A model generated the notes under the pieces. That model made no database searches and was not told where the DNA came from. It saw only the letters and a list, made by a program, of their open reading frames with translations. Positions 2,057-18,347 of a stretch of DNA of 40,404 nt are shown piece after piece; position 1 is the stretch's first letter, and each line of letters starts with the position of its first letter. Both the position numbers and the translations under genes were made by a program. Origin of the DNA: a virus; the UHGV virus genome UHGV-0391129. One strand, given 5' to 3'.

Positions 2057-2067
2057 AATTCCACCTC

Positions 2068-3483
2068 CTAATAAGCGATAAATTCAAATTCGTCTCCACT
2101 CGCTATCGTCTCAGCAATGCCGGTTGTAGCATCTGGCGCATCATCATGCTTGTTCTTACCCTCACGTTGGTAACTTGTCATGGCTTGATAATATTCCGGA
2201 CATCTTGTTCGCCAATCTGCCGGCATTCTCACATGCTGTTCAATCCAGGCACTATTCGAATATATCCGTGCTTGTTTATTTGATGATTGGTAAAAATCCT
2301 CAATGGCTGCTGTACACTTGCTAACTATCTTCTCTTTAACTGCGCGCGCAAAAGAGCGTCCGCCATTATTCCGTTCAATACGGCTATGGTTGACGCCCTG
2401 ATTAATTATTTGATTTGCTACCGCTATTTCTGTATATTCCATTGGTTCTTGCGTATAAATGACGTCCAAAACATCCACATCACCACTACCATCATCCAGT
2501 TCGCCGAAAGCAATAGAACAGAGATAATCGGCACCGGTATCTGCAGTATCACAGTATTGCCAGATTTTGCGGTATTGTGATTTACTATCGTAAGTTCTGA
2601 ACTCTTTATATAGTCGTCCTTTAATATCAATTGGAGTTTGTTGATAGTTAGCAGCGGCTATGTCAGCTCCCATTGTTTTGATTTTCCGTTGATATTCTTT
2701 CTTTGACAGTATTTCTTCACATAACATCTTATCCGTTTTTTCATCGTACGCCTGCATATTTACGTGTTTCACCCGATATCCAGAATTAGGTAATTCTCGT
2801 AAAGCACGTCCAGCCAAATCATCGCTGTGCCATCGTGTCATGATAATAATAATTTTGCCACCCGATTCAAGACGAGATAGCATTGTATTGATAAACCAAT
2901 CCCAATGTTTTTCTAGCACCATCGCATTATTTGCTTCTTCAGCATTTTTAATTAAGTCATCAATGATGATAATATCTGCACCAAAACCGGTAGCAGTACC
3001 CGTAGGAGACGTAGCTAAATAGTTGTTATAGCCATTAGTTAAACTCCATAAATTCATTGCTCCGTCCCCTTGTTTAATAGATACACCAGGGAAAATATCG
3101 CTAAAGACAATTTTATTTTTATCTGCTTTGATTTCTTGTATGGCATTCCTAACACCTTTTGAAAAGGTCGTCGATAACGTTTCATTATACGAACCTGTCA
3201 TAATCTTTTTAGATTGATCATTCCCTAAAACCCATTCTACAAATTTACCGCCAGTTCTGGACTTTCCGTGACGAGGAGGCTCGTTTATTACAAGTACGTC
3301 ATGCTCATCATCAGATAAAAAACTTTGTAGTTCGTTGCATAAATCGGATAGGAATGTCCTACTAGATTTATAAAATTTTCCTGCTGTTGTCTGGCAATAA
3401 TCCCAAAAGAAACGGCGTGACAACTCAGCTTTAGCACCCGTAGCAATATTACCCATCACGAGATGCCAACTTTCTAAGTTCAT
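2068..3483 (-). CDS. terL: Terminase large subunit
   Basis: 471 aa with a P-loop-like motif NEPPRHGKSRTGG and a C-terminal nuclease-like region containing an acidic IIIIDD patch; 4-nt overlap with the upstream terS-like gene. Confidence 0.8.
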   Translation of the reverse strand: MNLESWHLVMGNIATGAKAELSRRFFWDYCQTTAGKFYKSSRTFLSDLCNELQSFLSDDEHDVLVINEPPRHGKSRTGGKFVEWVLGNDQSKKIMTGSYNETLSTTFSKGVRNAIQEIKADKNKIVFSDIFPGVSIKQGDGAMNLWSLTNGYNNYLATSPTGTATGFGADIIIIDDLIKNAEEANNAMVLEKHWDWFINTMLSRLESGGKIIIIMTRWHSDDLAGRALRELPNSGYRVKHVNMQAYDEKTDKMLCEEILSKKEYQRKIKTMGADIAAANYQQTPIDIKGRLYKEFRTYDSKSQYRKIWQYCDTADTGADYLCSIAFGELDDGSGDVDVLDVIYTQEPMEYTEIAVANQIINQGVNHSRIERNNGGRSFARAVKEKIVSKCTAAIEDFYQSSNKQARIYSNSAWIEQHVRMPADWRTRCPEYYQAMTSYQREGKNKHDDAPDATTGIAETIASGDEFEFIAY

Positions 3484-4033
3484 CCTCGGTTAAGTTAGCA
3501 TAAGGATTGCTTACGCCAACCAGGCCGGATAGTTCCGTTTCCTTTTTGTCACGCCATATTTCAGGTTTGCGATTTTTAAGCCAAAACGCAGCAGCTCCTG
3601 TATCTGGCGCTACTTGTTTATCAACCTCAAGAAATACAATGCGTTCTCGTGTAGGAACCGCCTTTATCGCAGCATCTTTAACTTCTTGCAAAACAGCTTC
3701 TGGGTGATCTAGTTTATAACGATTTTCAAATTCACGACGTTCGCTTTCAACTACATCTCTGTCTCTGTCTACAACTTTCGCTGTTCGCTCAGTATATTCA
3801 TAACCAATCGCTCTTTTAAAAAGCGCATTTTCAACTTGACGGTCTACCACTTCTTTTCCCTTTTTTAAGGCCTGACAAATCTGACTATAATTCTCTTTCC
3901 ATCGATACAAGGTTTTAGGTGCAATGCCCATATTTCCAGATATTTGTTCATCAGTGAGACCGTCGCGGGCCCAACCTTCAATTTTTATCAATCCTTCATC
4001 AGTTAACCATTCTTGATATTTACCCTTAGCCAC
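3449..4033 (-). CDS. terS: Terminase small subunit (HTH DNA-binding)
   Basis: 194 aa with an N-terminal HTH (GNMGIAPKTLYRWKENY) directly upstream of terL. GTG start preceded by AGGTGAG. Confidence 0.65.
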   Translation of the reverse strand: MAKGKYQEWLTDEGLIKIEGWARDGLTDEQISGNMGIAPKTLYRWKENYSQICQALKKGKEVVDRQVENALFKRAIGYEYTERTAKVVDRDRDVVESERREFENRYKLDHPEAVLQEVKDAAIKAVPTRERIVFLEVDKQVAPDTGAAAFWLKNRKPEIWRDKKETELSGLVGVSNPYANLTEDELRKLASRDG

Positions 4034-4164
4034 GATCTCACCTACTTTCTAATCAAAACAAAAAGACACCTGTCGCTGACAGATGCCTCTCATATATTTT
4101 TCGATAATACAATATTACAACATTTTTCTGGAGAAAAACATGAGATAAAAAACTCAAGATTTCC
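4034..4164 (-). promoter_or_regulatory. Late-operon leader/promoter region upstream of terS with a stem-loop (ctgtc-agc-gacag) followed by a T-run
   Basis: Read on the minus strand, the region contains TTGTAA...TATTAT-like hexamers, then the hairpin CATCTGTCAGCGACAGGTG followed by TCTTTTTGTTTTG, lying between the ArpU-like regulator gene and terS. Confidence 0.35.
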
Positions 4165-4605
4165 TCACGTTTTCCTCACGTTTTTACAAAATTCAAAATC
4201 TACTTTTTCTATTCCCTTTGCATAAAGATAACCCACATGTCTTAGTGAATAACTTTTTCTATCTGCTATATCTTCTAAAGACATACGGTCAATAAAGTAG
4301 CATTCCAACACCTCAGCAAAACGATCATCTTCTAAAGAATCAATGCAGTCGAAAATTTCAAATTTAATTTTCTTTGATTTTAAAACTAAATTATTAATTC
4401 TATGCTCCAGTTCTTCTTTTTTTGCTAACAAGTCGTCAGTAGTCAGAGGTTGTCCACCACGGGGCATATCAGTAATATTTTTCGTTTTTAATCCCTGAAG
4501 ATCACAATCAATTTGAAAAAGTTTATTTTCTAATTTTTCAACGCGTTGCATATATCGTCGATATCTACTTAAAAATTTTTTATTTTGGCGTACTTCCTCT
4601 TTCAA
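4165..4605 (-). CDS. Late transcriptional regulator, ArpU/RinA (DUF1492, sigma-70 region-4-like) family
   Basis: 146 aa with a C-terminal sigma-like HTH (MSLEDIADRKSYSLRHVGYLYAKGIEKV), sitting immediately upstream of terS as in many Firmicute siphoviruses. Confidence 0.6.
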   Translation of the reverse strand: MKEEVRQNKKFLSRYRRYMQRVEKLENKLFQIDCDLQGLKTKNITDMPRGGQPLTTDDLLAKKEELEHRINNLVLKSKKIKFEIFDCIDSLEDDRFAEVLECYFIDRMSLEDIADRKSYSLRHVGYLYAKGIEKVDFEFCKNVRKT

Positions 4606-4832
4606 ATAGCTTTACCTCCTGTAACTTGATTCAAATTACTTTCTTGATACTTCATCAAATCAGAAAGAAAGATATTAACCAAAGGATGATTATTGTATTT
4701 ATTTCCCAAGTGACCAATACTATTTACAAGCCACTCCCAATACTCATCTGTTGTAATGGGATACTTTTGACTAAATTTGTTTGATTCAATCATCCAGTTT
4801 TGTAAATCATAAAAAAAAGCACTCCAATTCAT
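4602..4832 (-). CDS. Hypothetical protein
   Basis: 76 aa ORF translationally coupled to its neighbours (ATGA overlaps). Confidence 0.4.
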   Translation of the reverse strand: MNWSAFFYDLQNWMIESNKFSQKYPITTDEYWEWLVNSIGHLGNKYNNHPLVNIFLSDLMKYQESNLNQVTGGKAI

Positions 4833-5227
4833 TACAACTCCTCGATTCTGATATAAATCCCTGTTTGGTCAGCCCAAAATTTTTCGACTATTTCGGAACA
4901 TACTAATGCATCATCTTTCCAGAAGCGACATTCAGTCATACAATCTTTCAATAATTTTTGTAGATTGTCAGTATCCGGTTTGGTGTATTTCCATTCACCA
5001 TTAAAATGTTTGCCTGTCACTGGGAACAACCATTTAACTGTCAAACGTACAGGACCTTCAATAATTTCACTAGGAACATTATGCGATAAGTAACCAGTTA
5101 ATTTTGATCGTGCCGCTTTCAAATCTGGTGGTTCGTAAAACACTGGCTTACCATTTACTACATGCACTTGTTTTTGTTGGTGGGTAACGGTTGGAACTTT
5201 AGCCATAGGCATGAAGAATTCAATCAT
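4832..5227 (-). CDS. rusA: RusA-like Holliday junction resolvase
   Basis: 131 aa; the KPDTDNLQKLLKDCMT motif matches the RusA catalytic region (KPD.DN..K...D). Confidence 0.65.
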   Translation of the reverse strand: MIEFFMPMAKVPTVTHQQKQVHVVNGKPVFYEPPDLKAARSKLTGYLSHNVPSEIIEGPVRLTVKWLFPVTGKHFNGEWKYTKPDTDNLQKLLKDCMTECRFWKDDALVCSEIVEKFWADQTGIYIRIEEL

Positions 5228-5411
5228 CTAACGGCACCTCTATTTCATATTTCAAAGTTCGTTGTCCATTTATTGTTTGGCTTTTGCTTTTAGTGATTTC
5301 AACAGCAGTTTTGTTTTTAGATTCGATGGCAATAAAAGCATAAATCAGAATTTCGGCGAAAATCTTGTTCTTCGGTTTCAATTTCCGATAATTCTCTAGA
5401 ATCTCGTTCAT
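5220..5411 (-). CDS. Hypothetical protein
   Basis: 63 aa ORF whose ATG overlaps the TGA of the upstream small ORF (ATGA coupling). Confidence 0.4.
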   Translation of the reverse strand: MNEILENYRKLKPKNKIFAEILIYAFIAIESKNKTAVEITKSKSQTINGQRTLKYEIEVPLDD

Positions 5412-5588
5412 AATCTAGCCTCTTTCGGCTTAATCCCATTCCGCTCCATTTCTCGACTGAGTTCTTCCTCAATTTGACGGAGTATAGTCTTTTCACGATG
5501 AATATCTTTTGGGGCAGCTCCTGGGCGCTGAATATAATATTGTAATGCATGCTTAATAATTTGTTTTTTAGTATAGGGTGACATCTAA
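5412..5588 (-). CDS. Small hypothetical protein (58 aa, below the ORF-track cut-off)
   Basis: Hand-translated MSPYTKKQIIKHALQYYIQRPGAAPKDIHREKTILRQIEEELSREMERNGIKPKEARL, with a GAGGAG RBS 6 nt upstream of the ATG. It replaces the overlapping track ORF 5317..5622, which is in another frame. Confidence 0.4.
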
Positions 5589-5639
5589 ACTCCTCATTTC
5601 TCGTTATTTTATACTGGTACATACCTATTTTTATTTTTC

Positions 5640-5830
5640 GTTTCCCTCAAATTTCATGTCTCTGTCTTCCCTTTATGTCTCTCTTTCCCTGAAAGGGAGA
5701 GAGACATAGGGAACAGGACACAGACGGAATAAGGGTTTTCGACTTGTGGAACGCTTAGGAACTCTTTTTAGGGGTTCACGTAAACACGTTATGTGGAATG
5801 CTTAGGAGCGCTAAATAGCGTTCTAATAAA
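5640..5830. repeat. Structured non-coding region with a 13-bp bulged hairpin (atgtctctctttccc/gggagagagacat), a flanking imperfect inverted repeat and two copies of GTGGAA(C/T)GCTTAGGA 47 bp apart
   Basis: Read directly from the sequence at 5655..5730 and 5745..5806. Located just 3' of the primase gene, and locally GC-rich compared with its surroundings. Confidence 0.5.
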
Positions 5831-8074
5831 TTAATTAGATATTTTTGTTACCGTTCCTACATCAACTTGAAACAGTTCATGTTTTTTAATTCGTTTGTAA
5901 AGAGCACTCTTTGATATTTCAAGATAATCGGCAATCTGCCCTGCATCTATTGAACCACCGTCTTCACTCAAAACATTGAAAGCCTCTTCCAATTCTTTTG
6001 CGGCCTTTTCTGATCGTGTCTCATTTGATTTCTGAACTCCCTTTTTCCAGTTTTCTTTTGGGTCCTCTTCTAACTTAATATCCTGCAGTGACTCATCCAA
6101 AATATGAATCGGATATTTAAACCAGGCGTTTACTGGTTTAAATTTCGGAAATTCTCGCAAGGTACCTTCCAGTCGCCAAGCCGATGCCTGACGTGCTGAT
6201 TCAATGGCCGCATTTTTTTGATCCTCAATCTCTTTCAGAATCGGCTGGGCGTGAATAGCAGACATAAGATGATGTTGCATCTGCTTTTTGCTGAACTGGT
6301 CATCCAAACCGATATCAGAATAGTCAGGATTGTATTTCTGAATTGCGTCATAGTAGACTTTACAAATTGCCTCATTCTCCAAAGCCATGTATCGGTCTTC
6401 GGTTACGGGCAATTCAATCAAATCTAAAATGGCATCGGGATCTCGGGCAAAAACTCCCGAACCAGAAGAACGATCCATTGAGTTCTTGCCGCCTTGAGAA
6501 CCTTTGCTGTGATGGTGGCAATAAATCACTGCACATCCTAATTCCGTAGCAATTTTGTCAAACTGATTGGTAAAGTTAGCCATCTCATGGGCACTGTTTT
6601 CGTCACCGGTCAGAACTTTATAGATTGGGTCAATAATGACTGCGATATAGCTTTCCTTTTGCGCCCGACGAATTAGCTTCGGTGCCAGCTTATCCATGGG
6701 GGAAGTTTTTCCGCGTAGATTCCAGACATCAATATTCGAAACGTGTTCATGTCCTTGGCCAAGCCGATTGTAGATTTCAAAAAAGCGCATCTTTGCGGAA
6801 TTTTCATCCAATTCCAAATTGACATATAGCACTTTTCCTTGCGTACAATTGAACCCCATCCATTGACGTCCTTCTGCAATAGCTATAGAAAGTTGCATCA
6901 GTGAGAAAGACTTTCCGGCTTTTGAAGGACCAGCAATCAACATCTTATGACCTTGGCGCAGAACACCAGAAATGAGTTCAGGGGCCAGTTCGATTTTTGT
7001 TTCAAACAAATCAGCTAGGCTTTCAGGATCAGGAAGATTGTCATTCATGTCCTCAATGTATTCTTGCCATTCCTCCCAGGAAGCTTTCCCAATGTTAGTG
7101 TCCACAAGAAATTGCTTTTTATTTCCTCGGATAAATCCTGGTAGCCGCGTTAACCTGGAAGGATTCTTGTTCTGCTTGTCTACCCTAAGACCATTCTTTT
7201 CTACTATCTTATATAGATAATCTACTCGTTCTTGATATTGCGGATAATTGACAGCATCTACTTTCACAATAGCATGTAGAGATTTCCCACCAGAATAAGT
7301 TAAAGTCACCACGGGCAATTCTAGTTCTCGGATAATCTCGTTCTGTTTAGCTATGTCCATGTTGTCAGATTCGACTAATGCATAACGAAAATCAACTACA
7401 TTATCATTTTTTACTCCTTGACCGTCCAAGGGATTGAAACGAATCCAAGCGCCGCTATTTGGGTTAGGGTCTCCCATGACAGCGCCGATATCTCCTTGAT
7501 ACCGTCGAAGTCCGTCAATGATTTCACCAGCCGTCTTGGTATAGACACCTGCTTTTGGCAGCCACTTTTCCGTTTCACCTTTTGTATGGAGATAACCATC
7601 GTTCACATAACCAATGATGTCCCCTGGAGCAAAAAGCGTTTCTAAATACTTGACCACCTCATTTGACGGATTCCAGTTCTGATCTGTCGGTTCCTTGATT
7701 TCTTTTCCTAGAACCCAATCTGTTTTGACCAACTTGTACCCTTTGTCCACGTCAGTAGCGATGAAACTATCATTCCAATCAAGGAAGGAATTGTCATCAT
7801 CACTATAGTGGGAGTGCCAGCCGTTGTCTTTGGCTAACTGGGTAATGGTAGCACCAGTAACCGGTGAGTTAGTCCCTTGAAAGGTATTCCATTTCTTTTC
7901 GACTTCACCATCATGATAACGTCCGGGATCGCGTTGACTCCATTCATCCCATTCAGCGACTGTGTAACCTTCATGCTTTAATGCCATACCTACATTTACC
8001 CATTCCTGATAATTCAGCATTGATGGGTCAATGTAATCCAACAATTCGATTAGATTCATTTTTACCTCAGACAT
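5831..8074 (-). CDS. Phage DNA primase/helicase (PriCT_1-like N-terminus, Prim-Pol-like core, AAA_25 RecA-like P-loop, C-terminal HTH)
   Basis: 747 aa. N-terminus YQEWVNVGMALKHEGYTVAEWDEWS is a PriCT-like motif, SGGKSLHAIV is Prim-Pol-like, Walker A is LIAGPSKAGKSFSLMQL, and the C-terminal HTH is AGQIADYLEISKSALYKRIKK. Confidence 0.7.
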   Translation of the reverse strand: MSEVKMNLIELLDYIDPSMLNYQEWVNVGMALKHEGYTVAEWDEWSQRDPGRYHDGEVEKKWNTFQGTNSPVTGATITQLAKDNGWHSHYSDDDNSFLDWNDSFIATDVDKGYKLVKTDWVLGKEIKEPTDQNWNPSNEVVKYLETLFAPGDIIGYVNDGYLHTKGETEKWLPKAGVYTKTAGEIIDGLRRYQGDIGAVMGDPNPNSGAWIRFNPLDGQGVKNDNVVDFRYALVESDNMDIAKQNEIIRELELPVVTLTYSGGKSLHAIVKVDAVNYPQYQERVDYLYKIVEKNGLRVDKQNKNPSRLTRLPGFIRGNKKQFLVDTNIGKASWEEWQEYIEDMNDNLPDPESLADLFETKIELAPELISGVLRQGHKMLIAGPSKAGKSFSLMQLSIAIAEGRQWMGFNCTQGKVLYVNLELDENSAKMRFFEIYNRLGQGHEHVSNIDVWNLRGKTSPMDKLAPKLIRRAQKESYIAVIIDPIYKVLTGDENSAHEMANFTNQFDKIATELGCAVIYCHHHSKGSQGGKNSMDRSSGSGVFARDPDAILDLIELPVTEDRYMALENEAICKVYYDAIQKYNPDYSDIGLDDQFSKKQMQHHLMSAIHAQPILKEIEDQKNAAIESARQASAWRLEGTLREFPKFKPVNAWFKYPIHILDESLQDIKLEEDPKENWKKGVQKSNETRSEKAAKELEEAFNVLSEDGGSIDAGQIADYLEISKSALYKRIKKHELFQVDVGTVTKISN

Positions 8075-8572
8075 CTAATCGCTCCAATCAAAAATGATTT
8101 TTTCTGTGTAATAAGTTCGGTTAATAAAATCTTTCCGCTCACTCTTTTCATATCTAATATTTATAGAATGAATTTTTATCTTTAACAATTTAATCGTAAG
8201 GGGATCTCTTAGCCGTCGATTAGTATAATCATCATCGTTTTGGAAAATAAATGCGTATTTAGAAAACCCTTTACTGGCTGATTGTAATAATTTCTTTTCA
8301 AGATGCTCTTTTTCATACCAGCGCTCAAACCAAATCTGGTGTGAATCTTTTTTCTTTTGTTGTAATTGTTCTTTTAGTGATTGACTTTCAAAACCTTCGA
8401 TTGGTTCATCAGCATTGTCGGATTCTACCAAAAGCTGTTCTGCAATTTTCATAACTTTCTTTCTGCCCTTTACATAGTGATTCATAAGGTCTTTCGGAAC
8501 ATTATCTAATCCACGGAAGAAAGCTAGTCCAACTGCTATCCATTCATCACGGGTCAAATCATTTTTCATCAA
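8075..8572 (-). CDS. Hypothetical protein; the 3' third is markedly more AT-rich than the 5' part
   Basis: 165 aa ORF between the helicase and primase genes, with no motif recognised. Confidence 0.4.
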   Translation of the reverse strand: MMKNDLTRDEWIAVGLAFFRGLDNVPKDLMNHYVKGRKKVMKIAEQLLVESDNADEPIEGFESQSLKEQLQQKKKDSHQIWFERWYEKEHLEKKLLQSASKGFSKYAFIFQNDDDYTNRRLRDPLTIKLLKIKIHSINIRYEKSERKDFINRTYYTEKIIFDWSD

Positions 8573-8582
8573 TTCTACCTCC

Positions 8583-10175
8583 TTAATTAATCATGTCAGT
8601 TTCTCTGAAAGTGGCTGGATTAATCGACAGAGGAACTCGCCAACCATTTGAAGAAATCCGAGCAATCATTTTACGCGCAGTTTCAAACTGCCAAGTTCCG
8701 ACGTGCTGGAATCCTCTTTGTTCCAAGAATCTGATCTGTTTCGGTGTAGTCAGTCCTTCGCTACGTCTGAAATTCAAACGATCTAATAGCAGCGATGCTT
8801 TGCCGGCATTGTCAACTTGTTCTGGTAGAATACCGAATTTTTCTAATGTCTTAACTTGGCTATCACTCGGCGGGCCCATTTCCCAGCCGAATGCTGGTAC
8901 ATAACTAGAAAGATCTTCTGCTTGGATAGACATCTCAAATTGCAGTGGATCCACGAGTTTTTGTTTACGACGTTTCATCTCTGCTAATTGCTTGGCCAAG
9001 GCTTCTTCCCGTTCTGCTACTACATCTTCTGCTGCTTTCGATTCAGCCTCTTCAATATCCACAGGGATACCAGCTTCTTCAATATTTTCAGTCATCTTCT
9101 TAGCCACTTCATCGCTAGTGGCAATTAAATGAGCTGGATGACAAAGTTCATGGCGTTCAGTATGCCAAAGAAAATCTAGTAAAAGTAATTCAGTTTTTCC
9201 CTCATGCAGTCGGGTACCTCGCCCAACCATCTGGCTATAAAGCGACCGTACTTTAGTCGGCCGAAGAACTACAATGCAATCAACAGCAGGACTATCCCAG
9301 CCTTCTGTTAGCAACATTGAATTACAAAGCACATTGTACTTATCATTTTCAAAGTCTTCTAATATTTCCGCGCGATCTTTAGATTCACCATTGACTTCAG
9401 CAGCACGAAAACCTTTCGATTGTAAGATATCTCGAAACTTCTTAGAAGTTTTAACTAGTGGTAGAAATACAACTGTTTTTCGATTACTACAATGTTTCGC
9501 CATTTCATCGGCAATTTGATAAAGATAAGGATCTAGAGCTGTACCTAAATCTTTAGTGGAAAAATCTCCACCTTGCTGCTTTACACCTGTTAAGTCTAGC
9601 TTCAATGGAATCGTTAAAGCTTTAATTGGTGATAGATAGCCTTCTTTGATAGCCTTTGGTAAAGTGTATTCGTAAGCCAAAGATTCAAAGTATGACCCTA
9701 GATTTCTCATATCACCACGGTCTGGTGTAGCAGTTACGCCAAGAACATTGGATTGTTCGAAATGTTGTAGCACACGCTGGTAGCCATCTGAAATAGAATG
9801 GTGAGCTTCATCGACTACAATTGTGTCAAAAAAATTAGGTGGAAACTGGGATAAACGTTTCTCACGTTGTAGCGTCTGTACTGAACCAACAACTACCCGG
9901 AAGAAACTTCCGATGCTGGTCTGTTCTGCTTTTTCAGTTGCTGTTTTAAGTCCGGTCGACTTTTCTAATTTATCGGAAGCCTGGTCAAGTAGTTCCCCGC
10001 GATGAGCGAGGACAAGCACACGCTCGCCCTCACGCACCCGGTCTTCAATTACTTTTGAGAACACAATCGTCTTACCGCATCCTGTGGGTAAAACCAAAAG
10101 TGTCCGTTTTTTGCCTTCTGACCATTCCCGTTGAATGGCTTCACGGGCTTCCTGTTGGTATGGTCTTAATTGCAT
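8583..10175 (-). CDS. DEAD/DEAH-box (superfamily 2) helicase
   Basis: 530 aa with motif I LVLPTGCGKT and motif II VVDEAHH (DEAH); RBS AAAGGAA upstream. Confidence 0.8.
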   Translation of the reverse strand: MQLRPYQQEAREAIQREWSEGKKRTLLVLPTGCGKTIVFSKVIEDRVREGERVLVLAHRGELLDQASDKLEKSTGLKTATEKAEQTSIGSFFRVVVGSVQTLQREKRLSQFPPNFFDTIVVDEAHHSISDGYQRVLQHFEQSNVLGVTATPDRGDMRNLGSYFESLAYEYTLPKAIKEGYLSPIKALTIPLKLDLTGVKQQGGDFSTKDLGTALDPYLYQIADEMAKHCSNRKTVVFLPLVKTSKKFRDILQSKGFRAAEVNGESKDRAEILEDFENDKYNVLCNSMLLTEGWDSPAVDCIVVLRPTKVRSLYSQMVGRGTRLHEGKTELLLLDFLWHTERHELCHPAHLIATSDEVAKKMTENIEEAGIPVDIEEAESKAAEDVVAEREEALAKQLAEMKRRKQKLVDPLQFEMSIQAEDLSSYVPAFGWEMGPPSDSQVKTLEKFGILPEQVDNAGKASLLLDRLNFRRSEGLTTPKQIRFLEQRGFQHVGTWQFETARKMIARISSNGWRVPLSINPATFRETDMIN

Positions 10176-10228
10176 AGAAAGTTCCTTTCTTTAGTTGTAT
10201 AATTTAGAAAAAATAGGAGGCTCAAAAG
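10165..10228 (+). promoter_or_regulatory. Own promoter and RBS for the DUF4145 gene: extended -10 TGTATAAT (10194..10201) and AGGAGG RBS
   Basis: The sequence reads tttagtTGTATAATttagaaaaaatAGGAGGctcaaaagATG; the promoter overlaps the start of the divergently transcribed helicase gene. Confidence 0.45.
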
Positions 10229-10945
10229 ATGATTCAAAATAATTCACTAATCTGTCCTCATTGCGGACAAACATCTCCAAATATTTCTGCTGTTTATAGA
10301 GAAAAAGAAGTTTCCTTTTCGGAGACCTCACCTTCAATTTACGCAAAACATTTTGGTATGGAACCAAACCAATTTGATGAAATCAAAGATGCTATCATTG
10401 TTGGAATCTTGAGGTGTCCTGCTTGCGAAAAACACACAATAAAAATCTTTGGTCTTGGTCATGAAGTTGAAAATAATACTATGAATTTTTGGCCAAAAAG
10501 TAGAGCAAAAGTTTATCCAACCTATATTCCCGATAGTGTCAGAAAAGACTACGAAGAAGCATGTGCCATATTAGATTTAAGTCCAAAGGCATCAGCTACA
10601 TTATCTAGGCGTTGCCTTCAAGGTATGATTAGGGACTTCTGGGGAATTAGTGGTAAAAAATCCCTTTTCGATGAAATTAATTCGATTGATGACCAAGTTT
10701 CTCCGGATGTAAGAACTGTTTTACATTCTCTGAGACAGCTAGGAAACATTGGTGCTCATCCAGAAAAAGATATTAATTTAATCGTTGATATTGAACCTGG
10801 AGAAGCGAATCAGCTGGTTATGTTCATCGAGTATTTAATGGAAAATTGGTACATCAACAGACAAAAAACTGCTGATATGCTTGAAACAATCAATGAAATA
10901 AATAATGAAAAGCAGTCGGTTCGTAAAGAAGACAGTAATCTTTAA
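10229..10945 (+). CDS. Zinc-ribbon plus DUF4145 (HEPN-like) protein; candidate abortive-infection/superinfection-exclusion moron
   Basis: 238 aa. N-terminal CPHCGQ...(42 aa)...CPACEKH zinc ribbon and a C-terminal LRQLGNIGAHPE motif (R..N...H, HEPN-like, as in DUF4145). It is the only plus-strand gene embedded in the minus-strand replication module and has its own promoter. Confidence 0.55.
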   Translation: MIQNNSLICPHCGQTSPNISAVYREKEVSFSETSPSIYAKHFGMEPNQFDEIKDAIIVGILRCPACEKHTIKIFGLGHEVENNTMNFWPKSRAKVYPTYIPDSVRKDYEEACAILDLSPKASATLSRRCLQGMIRDFWGISGKKSLFDEINSIDDQVSPDVRTVLHSLRQLGNIGAHPEKDINLIVDIEPGEANQLVMFIEYLMENWYINRQKTADMLETINEINNEKQSVRKEDSNL

Positions 10946-11106
10946 ACTGGATCTTTTTCAGCCAAAAGATTTCCATCTTTACTCCAGTACTGATCAATAG
11001 GACGAACTGGGTCTTTTTCGGTTCCTTTACCTCTTGTTGCTATTACATGTATCACCTCAACTAGTTCAACTAGCTGAGGTGTTTTCATTTGGATTTCAGG
11101 ATTCAT
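10942..11106 (-). CDS. Unannotated small ORF (54 aa) with a strong RBS
   Basis: Hand-translated MNPEIQMKTPQLVELVEVIHVIATRGKGTEKDPVRPIDQYWSKDGNLLAEKDPV; GGAGGAA RBS 7 nt before the ATG at 11106. Its TAA stop (10944..10942) overlaps the TAA stop of the convergent DUF4145 gene. Confidence 0.4.
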   Translation of the reverse strand: MNPEIQMKTPQLVELVEVIHVIATRGKGTEKDPVRPIDQYWSKDGNLLAEKDPV

Positions 11107-11117
11107 TGATATTCCTC

Positions 11118-11864
11118 CTATGCAATAATCGTAATCCGGCCAGAATCGATCTCTTCAGATAGCTGCTCTTTCAAATATTCACGAATGTTCACGATTGCCT
11201 GATTCCGCCAAGCGCCACCATCTGCTTCAAAGATTGCTCCTCGAGGGCCGTCCTTCATCCGGAAGATAAACTGACTTGTAGGCTGTTCCACTTCAAGGAA
11301 GGTACGGTATGGAGCTAGGTCGACTGGATTAGGCACTCGTACATCCGCTTTTGTTGCAATGCCTTGATTGATGGTAACTGCTTGGCTCACACCATCGTCA
11401 CCGGTTTGACGGATATTATCCTCAGACACATTTCCCACTACTTGTAGCAAGATAGCTCGGTGATCGTTTGGTACAAATTTCGATTGTAAGGCAATGTTGA
11501 AGGATTCCATATCATGGAATTGACCAAAAGCAAAACTTGGTGTAATTGCTTCTGCTACTGCCAAAGTTTCACGGTTACCATCAATTTCAAGGGAACCTCT
11601 CAAATAAACAGTCGTCTCATTTTTGATGTGAACCAGCAGCGACGTATCTTTTCGCTCAATACCTGATTTGATGTAATTCACAAATCCAGACAGGGTATTG
11701 ATTTCAAGAGCTGATTTTGCGACGATAGCCCGTTCTCGAATTTCCGACACATTTCCCTCTTGATCTACGCCAAAAATACGACCATCATCCAGTTCTACAA
11801 TACGTTCATCGGGACGTACCCCTAATGCTGCCAATCTATCGATTGCTGCTACTGTTAAATCCAT
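11118..11864 (-). CDS. Hypothetical phage protein (early/recombination module)
   Basis: 248 aa ORF, comparatively GC-rich; no motif recognised. Confidence 0.45.
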   Translation of the reverse strand: MDLTVAAIDRLAALGVRPDERIVELDDGRIFGVDQEGNVSEIRERAIVAKSALEINTLSGFVNYIKSGIERKDTSLLVHIKNETTVYLRGSLEIDGNRETLAVAEAITPSFAFGQFHDMESFNIALQSKFVPNDHRAILLQVVGNVSEDNIRQTGDDGVSQAVTINQGIATKADVRVPNPVDLAPYRTFLEVEQPTSQFIFRMKDGPRGAIFEADGGAWRNQAIVNIREYLKEQLSEEIDSGRITIIA

Positions 11865-11869
11865 CTAAA

Positions 11870-12298
11870 TCATCCTCTCTTTTGTTGTAAATCAATAATT
11901 TGTTTTTGCTTTGCTTGCTCTTTTTCGATCACATCAATCGGTACCCCGACATCGGTTTTTACTTCCCCATCTGCGGGATCAATAAAGGTTTGACCAGGAA
12001 CGGATGATTTCAGTTCATGAGCTTCCACTTTGCCGGTTGCCAAATCTTTGCCAGTCAACACTGTAGTAGAGACCCCTTCTACAGGTGCAACCTTGACCGT
12101 GAAATCACTTGATACTGTGACGACTTGACGATTTTCGTCTGGCTTGAATTCGAGTTTGATAGTCACACCCCGTTTGGCCGTTGCCGGTGTATTGGGATCA
12201 TGAATATTGGCAAATACTTTTTCCAGTTCGCCATTCAGTTTTTCCTGAATGGCGCCATTTGCTAATTCTGAGAGCTGCAAATCAATTTCTTTTGTCAT
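11870..12298 (-). CDS. Hypothetical phage protein
   Basis: 142 aa ORF in an operon with Sak4-like and DUF669-like genes. Confidence 0.45.
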   Translation of the reverse strand: MTKEIDLQLSELANGAIQEKLNGELEKVFANIHDPNTPATAKRGVTIKLEFKPDENRQVVTVSSDFTVKVAPVEGVSTTVLTGKDLATGKVEAHELKSSVPGQTFIDPADGEVKTDVGVPIDVIEKEQAKQKQIIDLQQKRG

Positions 12299-12310
12299 AA
12301 ATCCGTCCTC

Positions 12311-12901
12311 CTAAAATGCCCCTGCTTGGAATCCACTAGCCTGTGGTTGTTGCGGCTGATTAAAGCCTTGTTGCGGTTGGGTAAATCCTTGTTGTGACTG
12401 ATTCTGCATTGGCGGTTGACCAAAATTTTGTTGAGGTGGCGTTGGATTTCCTTGATATGAACCATTCATATTTGCAGCACCTTCTATAAATTCATCGATT
12501 CGGTTATTTTGCTTATTCTCACCATTTTTTTGATAAGTATTGACGCTAACTTTCGCCCGACCACGGCTTCCTACTACCATTTGCCAATTCGGCGAAAAAG
12601 CTTGTCCTACGACAGGTCCTTGACCAATTGAGGAAAAGAACTGCGTTAACTTCCAAGCCCATTTCTTCATCAAATAAATGCGCTCTTTAACGGTAGTAGT
12701 TCCTTCTGGCGCAGTGATTTCAAATTCAATTTCCGCATAAGGCGCACCATTTGGAATTTTTTGACTTGGACCATCGTAAATCTTTCGTTCCATTCCGATT
12801 ACAACAAATGGATATTCTCCAGCGGGTAAAAGTGTGTACGTGCTTTCCTCAGCTATAAAGCTTCCATTCCAATCTAAAAATTCATTTTCGTTGTTCATCA
12901 A
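12311..12901 (-). CDS. DUF669-like phage protein with a Q/P-rich C-terminal tail (Sak4-associated, possibly ssDNA-binding)
   Basis: 196 aa. N-terminus FLDWNGSFIAEESTYTLLPAGEYPFVVIGMERK...IEFEITAPEG resembles DUF669 proteins that accompany AAA_24 recombinases. The C-terminus is low-complexity QQ/PQ repeats. Confidence 0.4.
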   Translation of the reverse strand: MMNNENEFLDWNGSFIAEESTYTLLPAGEYPFVVIGMERKIYDGPSQKIPNGAPYAEIEFEITAPEGTTTVKERIYLMKKWAWKLTQFFSSIGQGPVVGQAFSPNWQMVVGSRGRAKVSVNTYQKNGENKQNNRIDEFIEGAANMNGSYQGNPTPPQQNFGQPPMQNQSQQGFTQPQQGFNQPQQPQASGFQAGAF

Positions 12902-12911
12902 TTATCTCCTC

Positions 12912-13970
12912 CTAGAAGTTTCTGATTTTATTTTTTAAAAGGCCTAAAGCGTTGGCCCAGTTACTCGCAAGGTAATTCCATAGATCTATTGGTACATTTT
13001 CAGCAGGCGTATCTTGCGGCATAAAACCACCGACATAGATCACTTGCATAATTTCCTCATAGCTAACTCCATCATTACGCATTAAATCAGCCAATCCTTT
13101 TGGAACTATCGACGGAATTTCCGCTCGTTGATCAGGATCAGGTGAAAAGTCCGGTTGTGGCTCAGGTAACGTGACATCATCTGTAGGTGATGGGAAAGGT
13201 TTAGATGCTTCAGTTATAGGCAATTGACCAACACCAACTGTTGCTTGCTCAAAAGCTTGGGAAATTTGTGAATAGTCGAAAGGTAATTCATCAGGTAACT
13301 GCCAGCGATTCTTGGCATCCCACGCTGGGCGGTGAGTTGTATACATCGTCCGTTGACCACCTGTAGCTTTCTTACTATTGGTTTTACTATCAGTAATTAC
13401 AGTAGTCTTATAGTTAGCAAACAACACATTATCAGACCATTCTTTTACGATTCCAGCTGATTTCTTTTCAAGTTTCAGTTCATAGCGATCATAAGCGCCC
13501 ATTTCATCGGGTTCTTCTTTCTTCCGCAACATGGCATGAGCGGTTATCAATACATTGATACCAACGTCTATAACATCACTGAGCAGATTCAGCAGATTTC
13601 CCATCTCTTTTTCTAAGGCAATGTATTTATTACCATAATCGTTCCCTGAATCGTTCCACTTGCCCTGTGCCATCAAATGACGTTTGCAAAGATTTTCTGC
13701 CCAGTCGATCGTGTCAATGACTAATGTGCGACATGGCCGGTTGATTTTGACGTACTCAACTTGTTGCAAAAGCATTGTCCAGCTAGTCGGTTTATCAAAT
13801 CGTTTCACGTCCATATGAAGCGTTGAGTCTTCAGTATCAATAAATAGTGGCTCTGGAAACTGACTAGCAAATGTTGATTTTCCAATTCCTTCAACGCCAT
13901 ATAAAACGACTTTCTGCGCTTTAGGAATACGTCCTGTTGTGATATTCATTAAAATGCTGCTCCTTTCCAT
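12912..13970 (-). CDS. Sak4-like AAA_24 recombination ATPase
   Basis: 352 aa; the VVLYGVEGIGKSTFASQFPEPLFIDTEDS motif matches the AAA_24 Walker A and the adjacent FIDTE signature. Confidence 0.65.
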   Translation of the reverse strand: MERSSILMNITTGRIPKAQKVVLYGVEGIGKSTFASQFPEPLFIDTEDSTLHMDVKRFDKPTSWTMLLQQVEYVKINRPCRTLVIDTIDWAENLCKRHLMAQGKWNDSGNDYGNKYIALEKEMGNLLNLLSDVIDVGINVLITAHAMLRKKEEPDEMGAYDRYELKLEKKSAGIVKEWSDNVLFANYKTTVITDSKTNSKKATGGQRTMYTTHRPAWDAKNRWQLPDELPFDYSQISQAFEQATVGVGQLPITEASKPFPSPTDDVTLPEPQPDFSPDPDQRAEIPSIVPKGLADLMRNDGVSYEEIMQVIYVGGFMPQDTPAENVPIDLWNYLASNWANALGLLKNKIRNF

Positions 13971-15238
13971 GTTGTTTGAGCCGGTGCTACAGTCTCATTT
14001 TTGATTGCATAACCATCTTCGATAATAATCTCGCATTCATCACCAGTAGAAACCCGGGTAGCAATAGCCTGTAGCCCTTCCTGTTCAAGCCACTGACCAA
14101 ATTCTTCAAGCGACTTCATATCCATCTGCTCAAGCTTGTCCAAAAGGATAAAGCCACAATCTGGTTTCAACTTTCGAACAATTGCCGTAGAAACTTTCAA
14201 CTGATCTGACCCAGACATGTTGTCCCAGCGTTGGCCGTTGTATGTTAGTTCACCTTCTACTACGGATAGACCTGGTAAAGGTAAATCAGCCTTATTCAAT
14301 AACTCGGCTTTCTGACGACGGATTTCGTCAATCTTGGTAGTTTCAGCAACGTACTGCGTTTCATATTCTTTGGCATCATATTCGGCTTTTTCCTTATCAA
14401 GATTGGCCCTGACTTTCCGATTGATTTCATCAATTTTTGCCAAATTCTGTTCTAACTGTTCAGTAGATTCATCTTGCAAATCAACAGCAGATTTTTGGGC
14501 AATTTCTAGATTTTTCGAAGTCTCAGCGTGTTGGGCTTCCATTTGAATCAATTGTTGACGAGCTTGCTCAATCTGTTGGCGTTCAAGCTCCCATTTTTGC
14601 CCGATTGACTGCGCCTGTTCCCGTTTCCGCTGATTCTCCCCGTTTTTAGCCAAAATATCTTGTTGTTGGGCAATTAGTTCACTTGCTTCAACAGGTACTT
14701 TAGGTGCATCCGGATAGTAAACTTGCTCAGCGGCGTATTTCTTTTTTTGATCGGCAATCTGACCAATTGCATGACGGTGATTGTAAATCTCTTGTTCAGC
14801 ACGCTCTAACTCAAATAATTGCGGGCCGACTCCAATAATTTGAAGAAGTGTATTCGCCTTTTCTTTGCTCGTAGAATCCATGAACTTGGGAAGGTCAATT
14901 GCGAGTTCCTCTACAAAGCTATTTAAGAGGCTTTGACCGCCTTTTTGTCCATTAGGGTCAATTACCTTCAAATCTGAGTTCTTTCCTTTTCGTTCCACAA
15001 TCAAGCCGTTGTTCATCACAATATGGAGATGTGGCGGGTTCACCGAGCCTTCCCGATGAGCTTGGCTAGGTTTGTACTTGTTGCCACCTAATCCCCAAGC
15101 AATAGCATCTAGGACACTTGTTTTACCCTGATTGTTATTTCCACCAACGATAGTTAGGCCGTTGGCAGTCGGTTCAATTTTTACAGCTTTCACACGTTTG
15201 ACGTTTTCAATCTCAAGTTTGTTGATTTTAACTGACAT
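13949..15238 (-). CDS. SMC/RecF/SbcC-like ABC ATPase (AAA_23-type) with a central coiled coil
   Basis: 429 aa with Walker A GGNNNQGKTSVLDAI, a long E/Q/K-rich coiled coil and a Walker B-like FILLDKLEQMD. Confidence 0.55.
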   Translation of the reverse strand: MSVKINKLEIENVKRVKAVKIEPTANGLTIVGGNNNQGKTSVLDAIAWGLGGNKYKPSQAHREGSVNPPHLHIVMNNGLIVERKGKNSDLKVIDPNGQKGGQSLLNSFVEELAIDLPKFMDSTSKEKANTLLQIIGVGPQLFELERAEQEIYNHRHAIGQIADQKKKYAAEQVYYPDAPKVPVEASELIAQQQDILAKNGENQRKREQAQSIGQKWELERQQIEQARQQLIQMEAQHAETSKNLEIAQKSAVDLQDESTEQLEQNLAKIDEINRKVRANLDKEKAEYDAKEYETQYVAETTKIDEIRRQKAELLNKADLPLPGLSVVEGELTYNGQRWDNMSGSDQLKVSTAIVRKLKPDCGFILLDKLEQMDMKSLEEFGQWLEQEGLQAIATRVSTGDECEIIIEDGYAIKNETVAPAQTTWKGAAF

Positions 15239-15266
15239 CTGTTTTACACTTCCTTTAGATAGGTTT

Positions 15267-16067
15267 TTATTGACTGACTTTTTGCTTGCCGGCTGAGTCG
15301 GTCTTTTTTATTACTAGTAAATCCCCATTGGGCAAATAATATTGTTCTGTTCGTTGGCCATTAATGCACACTGTAGTCAAAATCAAATTGACTTGTTTTG
15401 ATTCAATTGAAATATCTGATGAATTTTCTGTTGAGACATTCACTTCTACTTCCTCCTTTTTCTTAGGAATATGAGCAAATCGAGCATCATTAAAACGATT
15501 CATAGCATTTTTGGCTTTAATACTCGTAGTTCCTTTTATCGGAAAAATATTAATACGACCGGAATTTCGAAGCCGTGTAACTTTCCCTTGGACTTGGCTG
15601 TATTTCATACCAGTTAAACGACTAAGATCGTCATAATTTGATACATATCCGTTTTCATCAAAGCTGATATTATCGATGAGCAATTGAATTTTTTCTTCTG
15701 TCCATTTAGCATCGATACTTGTTGTTCTTTTAGATTTCATAAGTCGTGCTACGCGATTTCCAACAGCTATCTCAGTCCTACCCAATGCACCAGCTATTTC
15801 GCTATGAGTGGCTCCCTGTTTTCTCATTGCTAACAGACGCTTATCTTCTTCGGATGTCCAAGGGCGTTTGAAACTATCAATGGCTAATTCCCGATTTACC
15901 TTTGGGAGATCCCCGTCACGTTGCAAGTTATATATTTTATTTCTTACTGATTGTGTTGTTCGATTTAACTTATTTGCCATTTCTTTTATATTCAAAACTT
16001 CGTTAGTTTCAGCAAGTAAGGCATTCTTTTTTAAATATTGAATTTCCTTAGTAGTCCAATTCTTCAA
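15267..16067 (-). CDS. DNA-binding protein with three Myb/SANT-like repeats
   Basis: 266 aa. Repeats WTTKEIQYLKKN..., PWTSEEDKRLLAMRKQGATHSEIAGALGRTEIAVGNRVARL and KWTEEKIQLLIDN...VTRLRNSGR. Confidence 0.45.
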   Translation of the reverse strand: MKNWTTKEIQYLKKNALLAETNEVLNIKEMANKLNRTTQSVRNKIYNLQRDGDLPKVNRELAIDSFKRPWTSEEDKRLLAMRKQGATHSEIAGALGRTEIAVGNRVARLMKSKRTTSIDAKWTEEKIQLLIDNISFDENGYVSNYDDLSRLTGMKYSQVQGKVTRLRNSGRINIFPIKGTTSIKAKNAMNRFNDARFAHIPKKKEEVEVNVSTENSSDISIESKQVNLILTTVCINGQRTEQYYLPNGDLLVIKKTDSAGKQKVSQ

Positions 16068-16083
16068 TCAACTCACCTTCTTC

Positions 16084-16278
16084 CTAATAAATTCCTTTTT
16101 CAACATCGATAATATGCATGCGATAGCCAAGTAATGCAGATACAATTAAAGCTGAAATAACTGCAATCACAATTAGTGTTACGCTTAAACTGATACTTCC
16201 CATCCAGCTAAATATAGCTGTAACCATGGCTACGACAACTGTAAATAGTATTAGCATTGAACATTTATGTTTTGTCAT
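16084..16278 (-). CDS. Small two-TM membrane protein
   Basis: 64 aa containing two hydrophobic helices. Confidence 0.4.
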   Translation of the reverse strand: MTKHKCSMLILFTVVVAMVTAIFSWMGSISLSVTLIVIAVISALIVSALLGYRMHIIDVEKGIY

Positions 16279-16307
16279 GTTTTCACCCTATTTCTGATTT
16301 TTAGCAA

Positions 16308-16616
16308 TTAATATTCTGGTAAATCATTGAATAATTTTTGTAAAAATGGTCTGATGCGTTCTGCATCAAATATCCATTTTCCATCTGTATCTCTTTTTGC
16401 CAATTTATTATTTCTGACATAAGGATCGTAAACTATATAATCCATAATCCATGCTCTTTTCCTTCGAGTTATTTTTTCCATATCAGCGATTGTCAACCAT
16501 TCAGGTTTCAAAAATTTATCAAATAGTTCATTCAAATATTCTTTGGCAAATTTTTCCATATATTTATTGTCTAATTGCACATTTACTTGCACTGGTAGAT
16601 CTGGTTGAGGAAACAT
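16308..16616 (-). CDS. Hypothetical early protein (DUF771-like?)
   Basis: 102 aa ORF directly downstream of cro; the family assignment is uncertain. Confidence 0.35.
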   Translation of the reverse strand: MFPQPDLPVQVNVQLDNKYMEKFAKEYLNELFDKFLKPEWLTIADMEKITRRKRAWIMDYIVYDPYVRNNKLAKRDTDGKWIFDAERIRPFLQKLFNDLPEY

Positions 16617-17164: not shown

Positions 17165-17530
17165 ATGGAGGATGTTTATATGACACCATTTGAAAGAGTT
17201 AAATATCTTTCTGATAAACAAGGGATTTCGATTAATGCTTTGGAAGAAAGAATTGGTCTTAGCAAAAATACTTTATATTCTTGGAAGAAAAAAACACCAG
17301 GCGTGGACAAGCTTAAACTCGTAGCCGACTACTTCGATGTCTCCACTGACTACCTACTAGGGCGCACGAACAATCCTGTAGCAGGTCTTTCCAAAAAAGC
17401 TCCGTTCACTGTGGAAGAGGCACTCGCTTCTGTTATGAGTAGCGATGGTAAGCCATTGACTGAACACGATCGAAAAGTATTGACTGGTATTATTGAAGCT
17501 TATCTTGAAAAAAATACTGACGCTGAGTAG
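17165..17530 (+). CDS. cI-like repressor (XRE-family HTH)
   Basis: 121 aa with an N-terminal HTH (ISINALEERIGLSKNTLYSWKK). The GGAGG RBS lies inside the first codons, so the start is probably the ATG at 17180 (MTPFERV...). Confidence 0.7.
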   Translation: MEDVYMTPFERVKYLSDKQGISINALEERIGLSKNTLYSWKKKTPGVDKLKLVADYFDVSTDYLLGRTNNPVAGLSKKAPFTVEEALASVMSSDGKPLTEHDRKVLTGIIEAYLEKNTDAE

Positions 17531-17971
17531 GTGATTTTATTGGACATTGATAATGAAGTAAATGAGATTATTAATGAGCTTGGTGTGACAGTTATTGAAA
17601 CGCCCGAACTAGACTCTGATGCCAAATATATAGCCGTAATGGATACAATTGTCTTGGATTCTCGATTATCTGAACGAATTAAGCTATTACGGCTATTACA
17701 CGAACTTGGTCATGCTGCTAAACACAAAAATAACTACTTGCTTTATAAAAAGAGCTTCGCACTTCATTCAAAAATGGAAAATGAAGCGGAAGAATTTATG
17801 ATTGAAAAAATGTTAGAAGCAAAGTTAAATGATCCAGACTTTGAGCCCAGTTCATTTAATTACATAAATTTTTTAGAAAGTTATGATATCGAAACAAGAT
17901 ACGAACCTGTCGTTAAAGAGTTTATGATGAAATATCTTGTCGGTTTTAGTACCGATAATATATTTTTTTAG
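17531..17971 (+). CDS. ImmA/IrrE-family metallopeptidase (anti-repressor protease)
   Basis: 146 aa containing an HEXXH motif (LHELGHAAKH), immediately downstream of the repressor gene. GTG start. Confidence 0.65.
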   Translation: MILLDIDNEVNEIINELGVTVIETPELDSDAKYIAVMDTIVLDSRLSERIKLLRLLHELGHAAKHKNNYLLYKKSFALHSKMENEAEEFMIEKMLEAKLNDPDFEPSSFNYINFLESYDIETRYEPVVKEFMMKYLVGFSTDNIFF

Positions 17972-18021
17972 CAACAAAACGAACATAGGTTCGTAAAATA
18001 GAGTTAGAAAGGAAGATAGAA

Positions 18022-18336: not shown

Positions 18337-18347
18337 GAGGAATAACT

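Follow-up and report, generated by a model that had tools for sequence, protein, structure and literature searches.

The virus genome UHGV-0391129, whose whole stretch of 40,404 nucleotides is referred to below as the window, is the circularly permuted genome of a temperate siphovirus and carries, within its early and replication genes, a single gene on the opposite strand (10229-10945, plus strand). Its product, a protein of 238 residues, is assigned by homology to the RAZR (PD-T7-4) family of ribonucleases (RNases), as a divergent member borne by a prophage. Comparative genomics shows this candidate defence gene to be an apparently self-promoted antisense prophage moron and one half of a mobile two-gene cassette of 942 bp, whose other half is a conserved gene for 54 residues (10942-11106, minus strand) that meets it tail to tail. 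The RNase adds a new, divergent member to a family that is already known and whose mechanism is solved. What is new beyond that is the conserved convergent partner, together with the stereotyped form of the antisense cassette; neither is described in the RAZR papers or elsewhere in the literature found.

PD-T7-4, which combines a zinc finger with DUF4145, was found by functional selection in E. coli and shown to defend (Vassallo et al., 2022; PMC9519451). It was renamed RAZR, for ring-activated zinc-finger RNase, when its mechanism and cryo-electron microscopy structure were reported (Zhang et al., 2026; PMC13017515; Protein Data Bank (PDB) entry 9y9c). RAZR is an abortive-infection protein whose zinc-finger domain binds ring-shaped phage assemblies, either a T7-type portal or the 24-mer Gp77; it polymerises around the ring, and its HEPN sites then cleave single-stranded RNA, which shuts down translation (PMC13017515). 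Ring-activated defence is known for RAZR-Ec and RAZR-Kv only (PMC13017515). The original prediction for the window, a candidate abortive-infection or exclusion gene, held that the combination of zinc ribbon and DUF4145 had not been characterised functionally, which these studies of 2022 and 2026 contradict, and the link between DUF4145 and HEPN domains on which it drew is correct (Anantharaman et al., 2013; PMC3710099).

The window protein has the same order of parts as the RAZR proteins of E. coli and Klebsiella, that is, an N-terminal Cys4 zinc ribbon, a linker and a DUF4145/HEPN domain, here at about residues 100-215, in 238 residues as against 219. The N-terminal domain is a predicted zinc binder, with C9 and C12 (CPHC) in one knuckle, C63 and C66 (CPAC) in the other and an insertion of about 25 residues between the two. 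The sequence LRQLGNIGAH contains R169-x7-H177, the putative catalytic pair of the HEPN RNase domain, set as in RAZR within an R..GN..H motif. The Pfam model of DUF4145 scores above its gathering threshold (E=9e-13), and the PADLOC model of PD-T7-4 (PDLC04109) matches residues 52-235 with its positions 38-207 of 211 (E=6.5e-15). A search of PDB sequences gives a lone real match (E=9e-7), a 219-residue 'DUF4145 domain-containing protein' present in 24 copies in 9y9c; the matched chain is RAZR from the RAZR-Gp77 complex. Its R146 and H154 align with R169 and H177, so that the catalytic R-x7-H spacing is present in the window protein.

Comparison of profiles gives the clearest relationship. A profile of 65 homologs of the window protein matches one of 18 bona fide RAZR orthologs, among them a Citrobacter protein identical to RAZR-Ec over residues 77-194, with 99.4% probability (E=4.6e-21). 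The alignment spans the second CxxC knuckle, which falls on C49/C52 of RAZR-Ec, the linker and the entire HEPN domain. Among Streptococcus phages, Javan64, SVep1 and phi891591 encode full-length RAZR orthologs, with a PADLOC E value of about 1e-68 and 34% identity to RAZR-Ec over the full length; since the match of the window protein to PDLC04109 is partial, whereas these orthologs match in full, it is placed in a divergent branch. The zinc ribbon, the LRQLGNIGAH motif and the DUF4145/HEPN assignment thus stand as originally predicted, as do the coordinates of the gene and its AGGAGG ribosome-binding site, and a PADLOC match was obtained; an abortive-infection or exclusion role would follow by homology to PD-T7-4/RAZR.

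Conservation and modelling agree with this assignment. Both C9-x2-C12 and C63-x2-C66 are invariant in the 65 homologs, and the R, G, N and H of R..GN..H are invariant across the RAZR-like branches; in the branch of the window protein G172, N173 and H177 are invariant and R169 is kept in at least 90%. As in RAZR, the gene is carried on mobile elements and the zinc-finger domain is the most variable part. An AlphaFold2 model of the protein (predicted local distance difference test score, pLDDT, 87.7) has a beta-hairpin knuckle at each CxxC pair and an all-helical C-terminal domain, which structure comparison identifies as a HEPN fold. The sole stretch of low confidence (pLDDT < 50) comprises residues 175-184, the loop at and after His177, whose sequence GAHPEKDINL is near-invariant in the window branch and which may be a flexible active-site loop.

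The cassette (10176-11117), made up of the promoter, the RAZR-like gene and the partner gene, lies between a gene for an early protein of 248 residues and a DEAD-box helicase gene. The nearest named relatives come from Enterococcus, and the Enterococcus phage EFC-1 has a matching replication module, with a helicase 76% identical at the DNA level, in which gp16, the homolog of the 248-residue protein, abuts the helicase gene gp17 with a gap of 12 nucleotides; both cassette genes are absent. The GC content of the cassette is 35.2%, compared with 42-43% in both flanks. An identical 238-residue protein is encoded on metagenomic contigs of 263-297 kb in the same context, flanked by integrase, repressor and replication genes, which indicates that the locus is an integrated prophage. 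The RAZR-like gene is the lone plus-strand exception across 602-16616, about 16 kb in which all other credible genes lie on the minus strand, in line with the 15 kb claimed for it and with its proposed nature as a prophage moron.

Homologous cassettes are found in several contexts, namely the replication module of Enterococcus prophages, the cI/cro switch of Streptococcus phages, Anaerostipes phages and a Mu-like transposable phage, and these differences indicate that the pair moves as a unit. In the Mu-like phage (contig L147, 2501-5180) the cassette is located in the early region, immediately upstream of the rve/Mu-transposase gene. Several cassette-bearing Streptococcus prophages (L002, 8197-9147; L011, 1-314; L141, 1-476) hold an Abi_2 (AbiD/F-like) gene beside the integrase, which together with the cassette gives two candidate abortive-infection genes per such prophage.

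The putative promoter of the RAZR-like gene consists of a -35-like TAGAAA (10175-10180), a spacer of 17 nucleotides and a perfect TATAAT -10 element (10198-10203), all on the plus strand, matches the consensus at 10 of 12 positions and contains the sole promoter-like site that a scan found in 9800-11500. The -35-like element overlaps the start codon of the divergent helicase gene (ATG 10175-10173, minus strand), and the ribosome-binding site AGGAGG (10216-10221, plus strand) stands 8 nucleotides ahead of the ATG at 10229, with GGAG kept at the matching position in homologous cassettes. In the AT-rich DNA of the window the number of promoter-like matches is not above chance (1 found, 4.0 expected), and for this reason the promoter call is based on conservation over 88 unique upstream regions of homologous genes, compared with a control. 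TATAAT is present in 82 of the 88 (control 16%), mostly as TGgTATAAT, the canonical extended -10, TGnTATAAT, in 61 (control 5%), and the arrangement TATAAT..GGAG..ATG in 67 (control 3%); the conserved -10 typically ends about 26 nucleotides before the ATG. The element thus probably works as a promoter, as had been supposed. The extended -10 also claimed for the window is not canonical, since TG directly adjoins the hexamer (TTGTATAAT; scanner flag 'TG: no').

Scans found no terminator-like site in 10000-11500 and no promoter-like site for the helicase within the cassette, and the shared stop codons leave no space for a terminator between the two cassette genes. To reach the helicase gene, the early transcript would therefore have to cross the whole RNase gene in antisense. 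Convergent transcription is plausible as a regulatory device.

The partner gene lies on the lytic (early-operon) strand. Its ribosome-binding site, AGGAGG, is located 7 nucleotides before the ATG in a segment (11107-11120, minus strand; ATTACGATTATTGCATAGGAGGAATATCAATG) that overlaps the TAG stop of the upstream gene for 248 residues, and it is translated from the transcript of the early lytic operon. The two cassette genes share the palindrome TTAA (10942-10945), which holds both stop codons in a tail-to-tail overlap of 4 nucleotides. The protein matches phrog_14088 (E=5.5e-17) and has no match in Pfam, NCBIfam, PADLOC or PDB sequences; its homologs share the core RG.GT..DP.R.V.QYW...G.LLAE.DP, and its model (pLDDT 89) is a predicted three-stranded beta sheet. 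The median ratio of nonsynonymous to synonymous substitution rates (dN/dS) of the partner gene is 0.11-0.13 in frame, compared with 0.14 for the RNase gene, and the other five frames of the region have pN/pS values of 0.4-1.45. The open reading frame is a real protein-coding gene under purifying selection. The original prediction had placed it correctly, strong ribosome-binding site included, and had suggested a possible cis antisense partner; it is not merely that, being a conserved coding gene that is co-mobile with RAZR-like genes and also occurs alone elsewhere.

The partner belongs to a large family, for which an exhaustive profile search gives 3,921 clusters at 50% identity; in 1,167 of these the representative has an E value of 1e-10 or lower. 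Longer proteins with this domain consist of it and N- or C-terminal extensions of 60-150 residues in which no domain is recognisable, and a search among them for fusions to known domains found none. In P0241, a protein of 117 residues, the domain is tandemly duplicated in one polypeptide.

Pairing of the two genes was surveyed for 117 phage-borne RAZR-like genes, taken from 102 viral contigs that were retrieved with RAZR-like proteins from two branches and from further loci. A homologous small reading frame converges on the 3' end in 110 of these, so that the tail-to-tail arrangement is far beyond chance; the overlap of the stop regions has modes at +25, +4, 0 and -4 nucleotides. Clustering at 80% identity reduces the sample to about 20 clusters, which belong to 3-4 deep RNase lineages and have one small-protein family throughout; among the paired genes are the full-length RAZR orthologs of Javan64, SVep1 and phi891591. 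The sample holds no small-family match without an adjoining RAZR-like gene. Among the seven unpaired genes, decayed remnants of the partner accompany two, one is itself a fragment, two are members of another subfamily with a different small reading frame, and two truly lack the partner. Likewise, in 17 of 17 phage records with a tblastn match to the partner, judged by direct inspection or by matching coordinates, the match is tail to tail with a zinc-ribbon/DUF4145 gene for 224-241 residues. In every case the partner shares its strand with the early genes around it, and in many it comes first or second behind the cI/cro switch.

At chromosomal RAZR loci the partner is missing. No small-family gene is present within 3 kb on either side, even at E<=10, at any of 24 such loci, from Enterobacterales, Vibrio, Pseudomonas, Desulfobacterota, Pedobacter and others. 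The filamentous Vibrio phage 10N.261.54.B5_PE001 (Tubulavirales; L237, 2495-3160) encodes a PD-T7-4/RAZR ortholog 42% identical to RAZR-Ec, co-directional with and adjoining a DUF2726 gene; this locus has no small partner, and the virion has no portal.

The reverse sample, 80 viral loci fetched through the small protein, holds 78 small-family genes, of which 54 are paired, 21 (about 30%) stand alone among co-directional early genes and three are cut by contig ends. None is convergent with any other kind of gene. At 90% identity there are 22 paired clusters, 14 alone and one mixed, and the paired and alone states are interspersed within clusters at 70% identity; two further family members from the databases also stand alone.

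These observations can be assembled into a mechanism. By homology, the 238-residue gene encodes a divergent RAZR-family protein with a Cys4 zinc-ribbon sensor domain and a HEPN RNase domain bearing R-x7-H. Judging by the layout, a separate constitutive promoter of the sigma-70 type would drive it in antisense to the early operon, which is repressed, and its product should consequently be present in the lysogen. By analogy with RAZR, a large ring assembly of a superinfecting phage, for instance its portal, would template oligomerisation through the zinc-finger domain, and the oligomerised protein would cleave single-stranded RNA non-specifically, which would stop translation and abort the infection. 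Comparative genomics shows the gene to be half of a mobile cassette, and its constant companion in tailed temperate Firmicutes phages is the convergent gene, on the lytic strand, for the 54-residue beta-sheet protein. These four steps together are considered highly probable.

In the fifth step, to which somewhat less than an even chance is given, the small protein would be an antidote that makes the prophage immune to its own RNase, as gene layout and distribution suggest. On induction or infection the early transcript would yield the small protein, which would inhibit the RNase, possibly at the HEPN domain; running antisense through the RNase gene, the same transcript could also silence it by transcriptional collision or duplex RNA, and the prophage's own portal rings could then assemble without triggering suicide. 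The distribution is as expected for this role: the partner is near-constant beside RAZR in portal-bearing temperate phages, it is absent from the sampled chromosomal and filamentous-phage copies, other phages at times have it on its own, and it lies on the lytic strand throughout, in many cases as an immediate-early gene. For the whole chain, the antidote step included, the probability is estimated at roughly 0.55.

The divergence of the parts fits a conserved target, in that the core of the small protein (39-45% identical between the deepest RNase lineages) is better kept than the zinc-finger domain (about 18%); the HEPN domain is about 27% identical. In a mirror-tree style comparison the divergence of the small protein correlates moderately with that of the zinc-finger domain (rho 0.48) and of the HEPN domain (rho 0.52), correlations that do not discriminate binding sites, as linked genes are co-inherited anyway, so that only the relative conservation of partner and zinc finger is used here.

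In Streptococcus phage SM1 (L001, 1686-3528) two further antisense early genes each lie tail to tail with a small reading frame on the lytic strand. In one pair, gp10/gp11, gp11 is a TIR-like effector (PADLOC E=2e-17); in the other, gp13/gp14, gp14 combines a zinc ribbon with a weak DUF4145 that lacks the Arg. The proteins gp10, gp13 and IPP16_13 (L002, phage IPP16, 2864-3635) share the N-terminal sequence MNELER..L.E.LRTV and form a second small-protein family. The SM1 pairs may point to a general architecture for prophage-borne abortive-infection genes. In the loci L153 (599-1317) and L154 (599-1383) an antisense gene for 196-218 residues, which has no family match, overlaps by 4 nucleotides a convergent reading frame of 43 residues; this phage also has a protein of 211 residues with the domain of the partner family, standing alone.

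Several observations weigh against the proposed mechanism. Identity to RAZR-Ec is 24%, in the HEPN half only, and the first zinc knuckle is collinear with that of RAZR-Ec but cannot be aligned with it, owing to the insertion of about 25 residues; a Foldseek search with the window model did not return the RAZR chain of 9y9c. Higher-order oligomerisation of RAZR involves D179, D180, R184 and V21. The residues of its dimer-dimer interface, D179, D180 and R184, are not kept in the alignment, where the window protein has E, N and N (Javan64 has D, N and Q), although other contacts may substitute for them in oligomerisation. Taken together, these four points mean that ring-templated activation may not carry over unchanged. 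Expression of the RAZR-like gene in the lysogen is read from the sequence. Intact RAZR-like genes with a broken or missing partner occur in the phage contigs L085, L093 and L094, and the presence of the second small-protein family beside two unrelated effectors hints that convergent small reading frames might play a generic rather than an effector-specific role.

The main rival explanation, considered unlikely, is that the RAZR-like gene is a self-sufficient defence and the 54-residue gene an unrelated early gene that marks a site of recombination or insertion, where the RNase hitch-hikes. Under their native promoters RAZR-Ec and RAZR-Kv do defend by themselves, a partner is not required by chromosomal RAZR, and a conserved small gene could offer homology for modular exchange; the many small-family genes that stand alone, interspersed with paired ones, would also be expected. 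A generic hotspot, however, predicts other convergent inserted genes, of which there are none in the 78 loci, and comparison with Enterococcus shows that both genes are gained or lost jointly. Moreover, the pairing spans 3-4 deep RAZR lineages and several types of phage, including a Mu-like one, and the stop-to-stop geometry is tightly constrained. The tight co-occurrence and co-mobility of the genes could also mean that the small protein acts positively, as a co-sensor, adaptor or early-infection signal that arms the RNase, giving a two-component exclusion of phages that bear the small gene. Its immediate-early position in many phages would suit this role, and standalone copies in other phages could be the signal that is sensed. 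Such a prophage, however, would kill itself on induction, the published RAZR triggers are large rings and not small monomers, and chromosomal RAZR works without the small protein, which makes this reading improbable.

A toxin-antitoxin-like module, in which a constitutively active HEPN RNase is held by the small protein as a constitutive antitoxin, is less probable still. The small gene lacks a separate promoter and follows immediately after another early gene on the lytic strand, which is repressed, so that in the lysogen it should be silent at a time when the RNase is made; RAZR, in addition, stays inactive until it meets a trigger, and the intact RNase genes of L085, L093 and L094 persist beside a broken or missing partner. 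This reading was rejected on gene orientation and promoter layout. Very improbable, finally, is that the 238-residue protein is a zinc-finger DNA-binding phage regulator and neither an RNase nor a defence protein, as the annotation of SM1 gp7 and phrog_1305 would have it. Databases do label the family 'DNA binding protein', and in Streptococcus phages the gene sits at the genetic switch, but an experimental basis for the label was not found, the R..GN..H motif is invariant across the family, the HEPN fold and the homology to RAZR are strong, and the gene is dispensable in related phages. The annotation was rejected as unsupported.

The antidote that the preferred mechanism assumes has two precedents. 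T4 Dmd is a small beta-rich phage protein that inhibits the HEPN RNase toxins RnlA and LsoA, and PDB 5hy3, which turned up in the HEPN-fold comparison, presumably belongs to this Dmd and RnlA/LsoA system. Dmd has no sequence similarity and no detectable structural similarity to the 54-residue protein, and it is encoded by the attacking phage, whereas the candidate inhibitor here lies beside the RNase in the same prophage. Self-immunity of a prophage is said to have been described in 2021 by Owen and colleagues for BstA/aba, where aba is reportedly a DNA element inside the bstA gene. The likeness would lie in a prophage-encoded abortive-infection protein with a linked element that spares the prophage's own lytic cycle, which in the window layout and distribution suggest; the difference is that aba is a DNA element and not a protein, and that BstA is not a HEPN RNase. 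From type II toxin-antitoxin systems such as HEPN-MNT and RnlA-RnlB the window pair differs in that its genes are convergent and the small gene is promoterless in a repressed early operon, and profile searches with the pair revealed no similarity to MNT or RnlB.

Other HEPN-fold abortive-infection effectors are HepS of Gifsy-1 (PDB 9oik), which is prophage-borne and senses a phage structural protein, AbiV (PDB 9bj5) and BxaP, which contains DUF4145 and defends (PMC10799925). They have other sensor domains and architectures, without a zinc ribbon, and no convergent small partner has been reported for them. RAZR itself, in its characterised Gram-negative loci, is a single-gene system in which the convergent gene is absent, whereas in the window the host is Gram-positive, the gene lies antisense in the early operon of a tailed prophage, and tailed Firmicutes phages pair it with the partner in 110 of 117 cases.

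The rest of the window is arranged as follows. The lysogeny module (17165-19469, plus strand) encodes a helix-turn-helix repressor, an M78/ImmA-like protease and a tyrosine integrase. The early and replication operon on the minus strand encodes DUF771, an ABC-type ATPase, a Sak4-like AAA_24 protein, the DEAD-box helicase, a PriCT/AAA_25 primase and RusA, and the terminase and an SPP1-type portal (602-2056) follow, also on the minus strand. Between the integrase and the lysis and tail genes, at the usual att-proximal position of morons, there are two genes (19799-21035, plus strand), one for 108 residues without a match and one for 307 residues with a C-terminal LysM domain. The 429-residue ABC/SMC-type ATPase of the replication module (13949-15238, minus strand) has many weak PADLOC matches, to LmuB, AriA, PtuA, GajA and Old (E 1e-9 to 1e-5), mostly in the N-terminal P-loop; as EFC-1 keeps this ATPase within its replication/recombination module, the matches probably reflect generic ATPase similarity.

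RAZR represents a newly solved form of immunity, in which a ring templates a megadalton RNase, and it has so far been a single gene of Gram-negative bacteria. The present comparison indicates that divergent RAZR genes are carried by tailed temperate phages that infect Gram-positive bacteria, and that their setting is stereotyped: they are apparently self-promoted, lie antisense in the early operon and nearly always come with an undescribed conserved small gene that is absent at the sampled chromosomal RAZR loci. A broader proposal, held more tentatively than the antidote step itself, is that the 54-residue protein is the founding member of a large family of early phage proteins, so far without a name, which would be the first inhibitors of RAZR-type HEPN RNases from nature. 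Tailed temperate Firmicutes phages would then carry a convergent cassette of RNase and inhibitor, with the poison on the lysogenic strand and the antidote on the lytic one, in which the choice of promoter decides between excluding rivals and sparing the phage itself, and the inhibitor standing alone elsewhere would serve as counter-defence.

To a specialist a prophage homolog of RAZR is unsurprising, and if the small protein is not an antidote, the RAZR-like gene nonetheless clearly represents a new branch within an established family of defence genes. If it is, this would account for the ability of a prophage to give its host a sensor of portal-like rings and yet assemble its own portal, the small protein would be the first anti-RAZR protein and a tool for probing HEPN activation, and a convergent small reading frame on the lytic strand would become a genomic signature for pairs of defence and anti-defence genes in prophages. 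The partner family thus offers a testable route to an anti-RAZR protein and to the way in which prophages tolerate their own abortive-infection systems that sense structural proteins.

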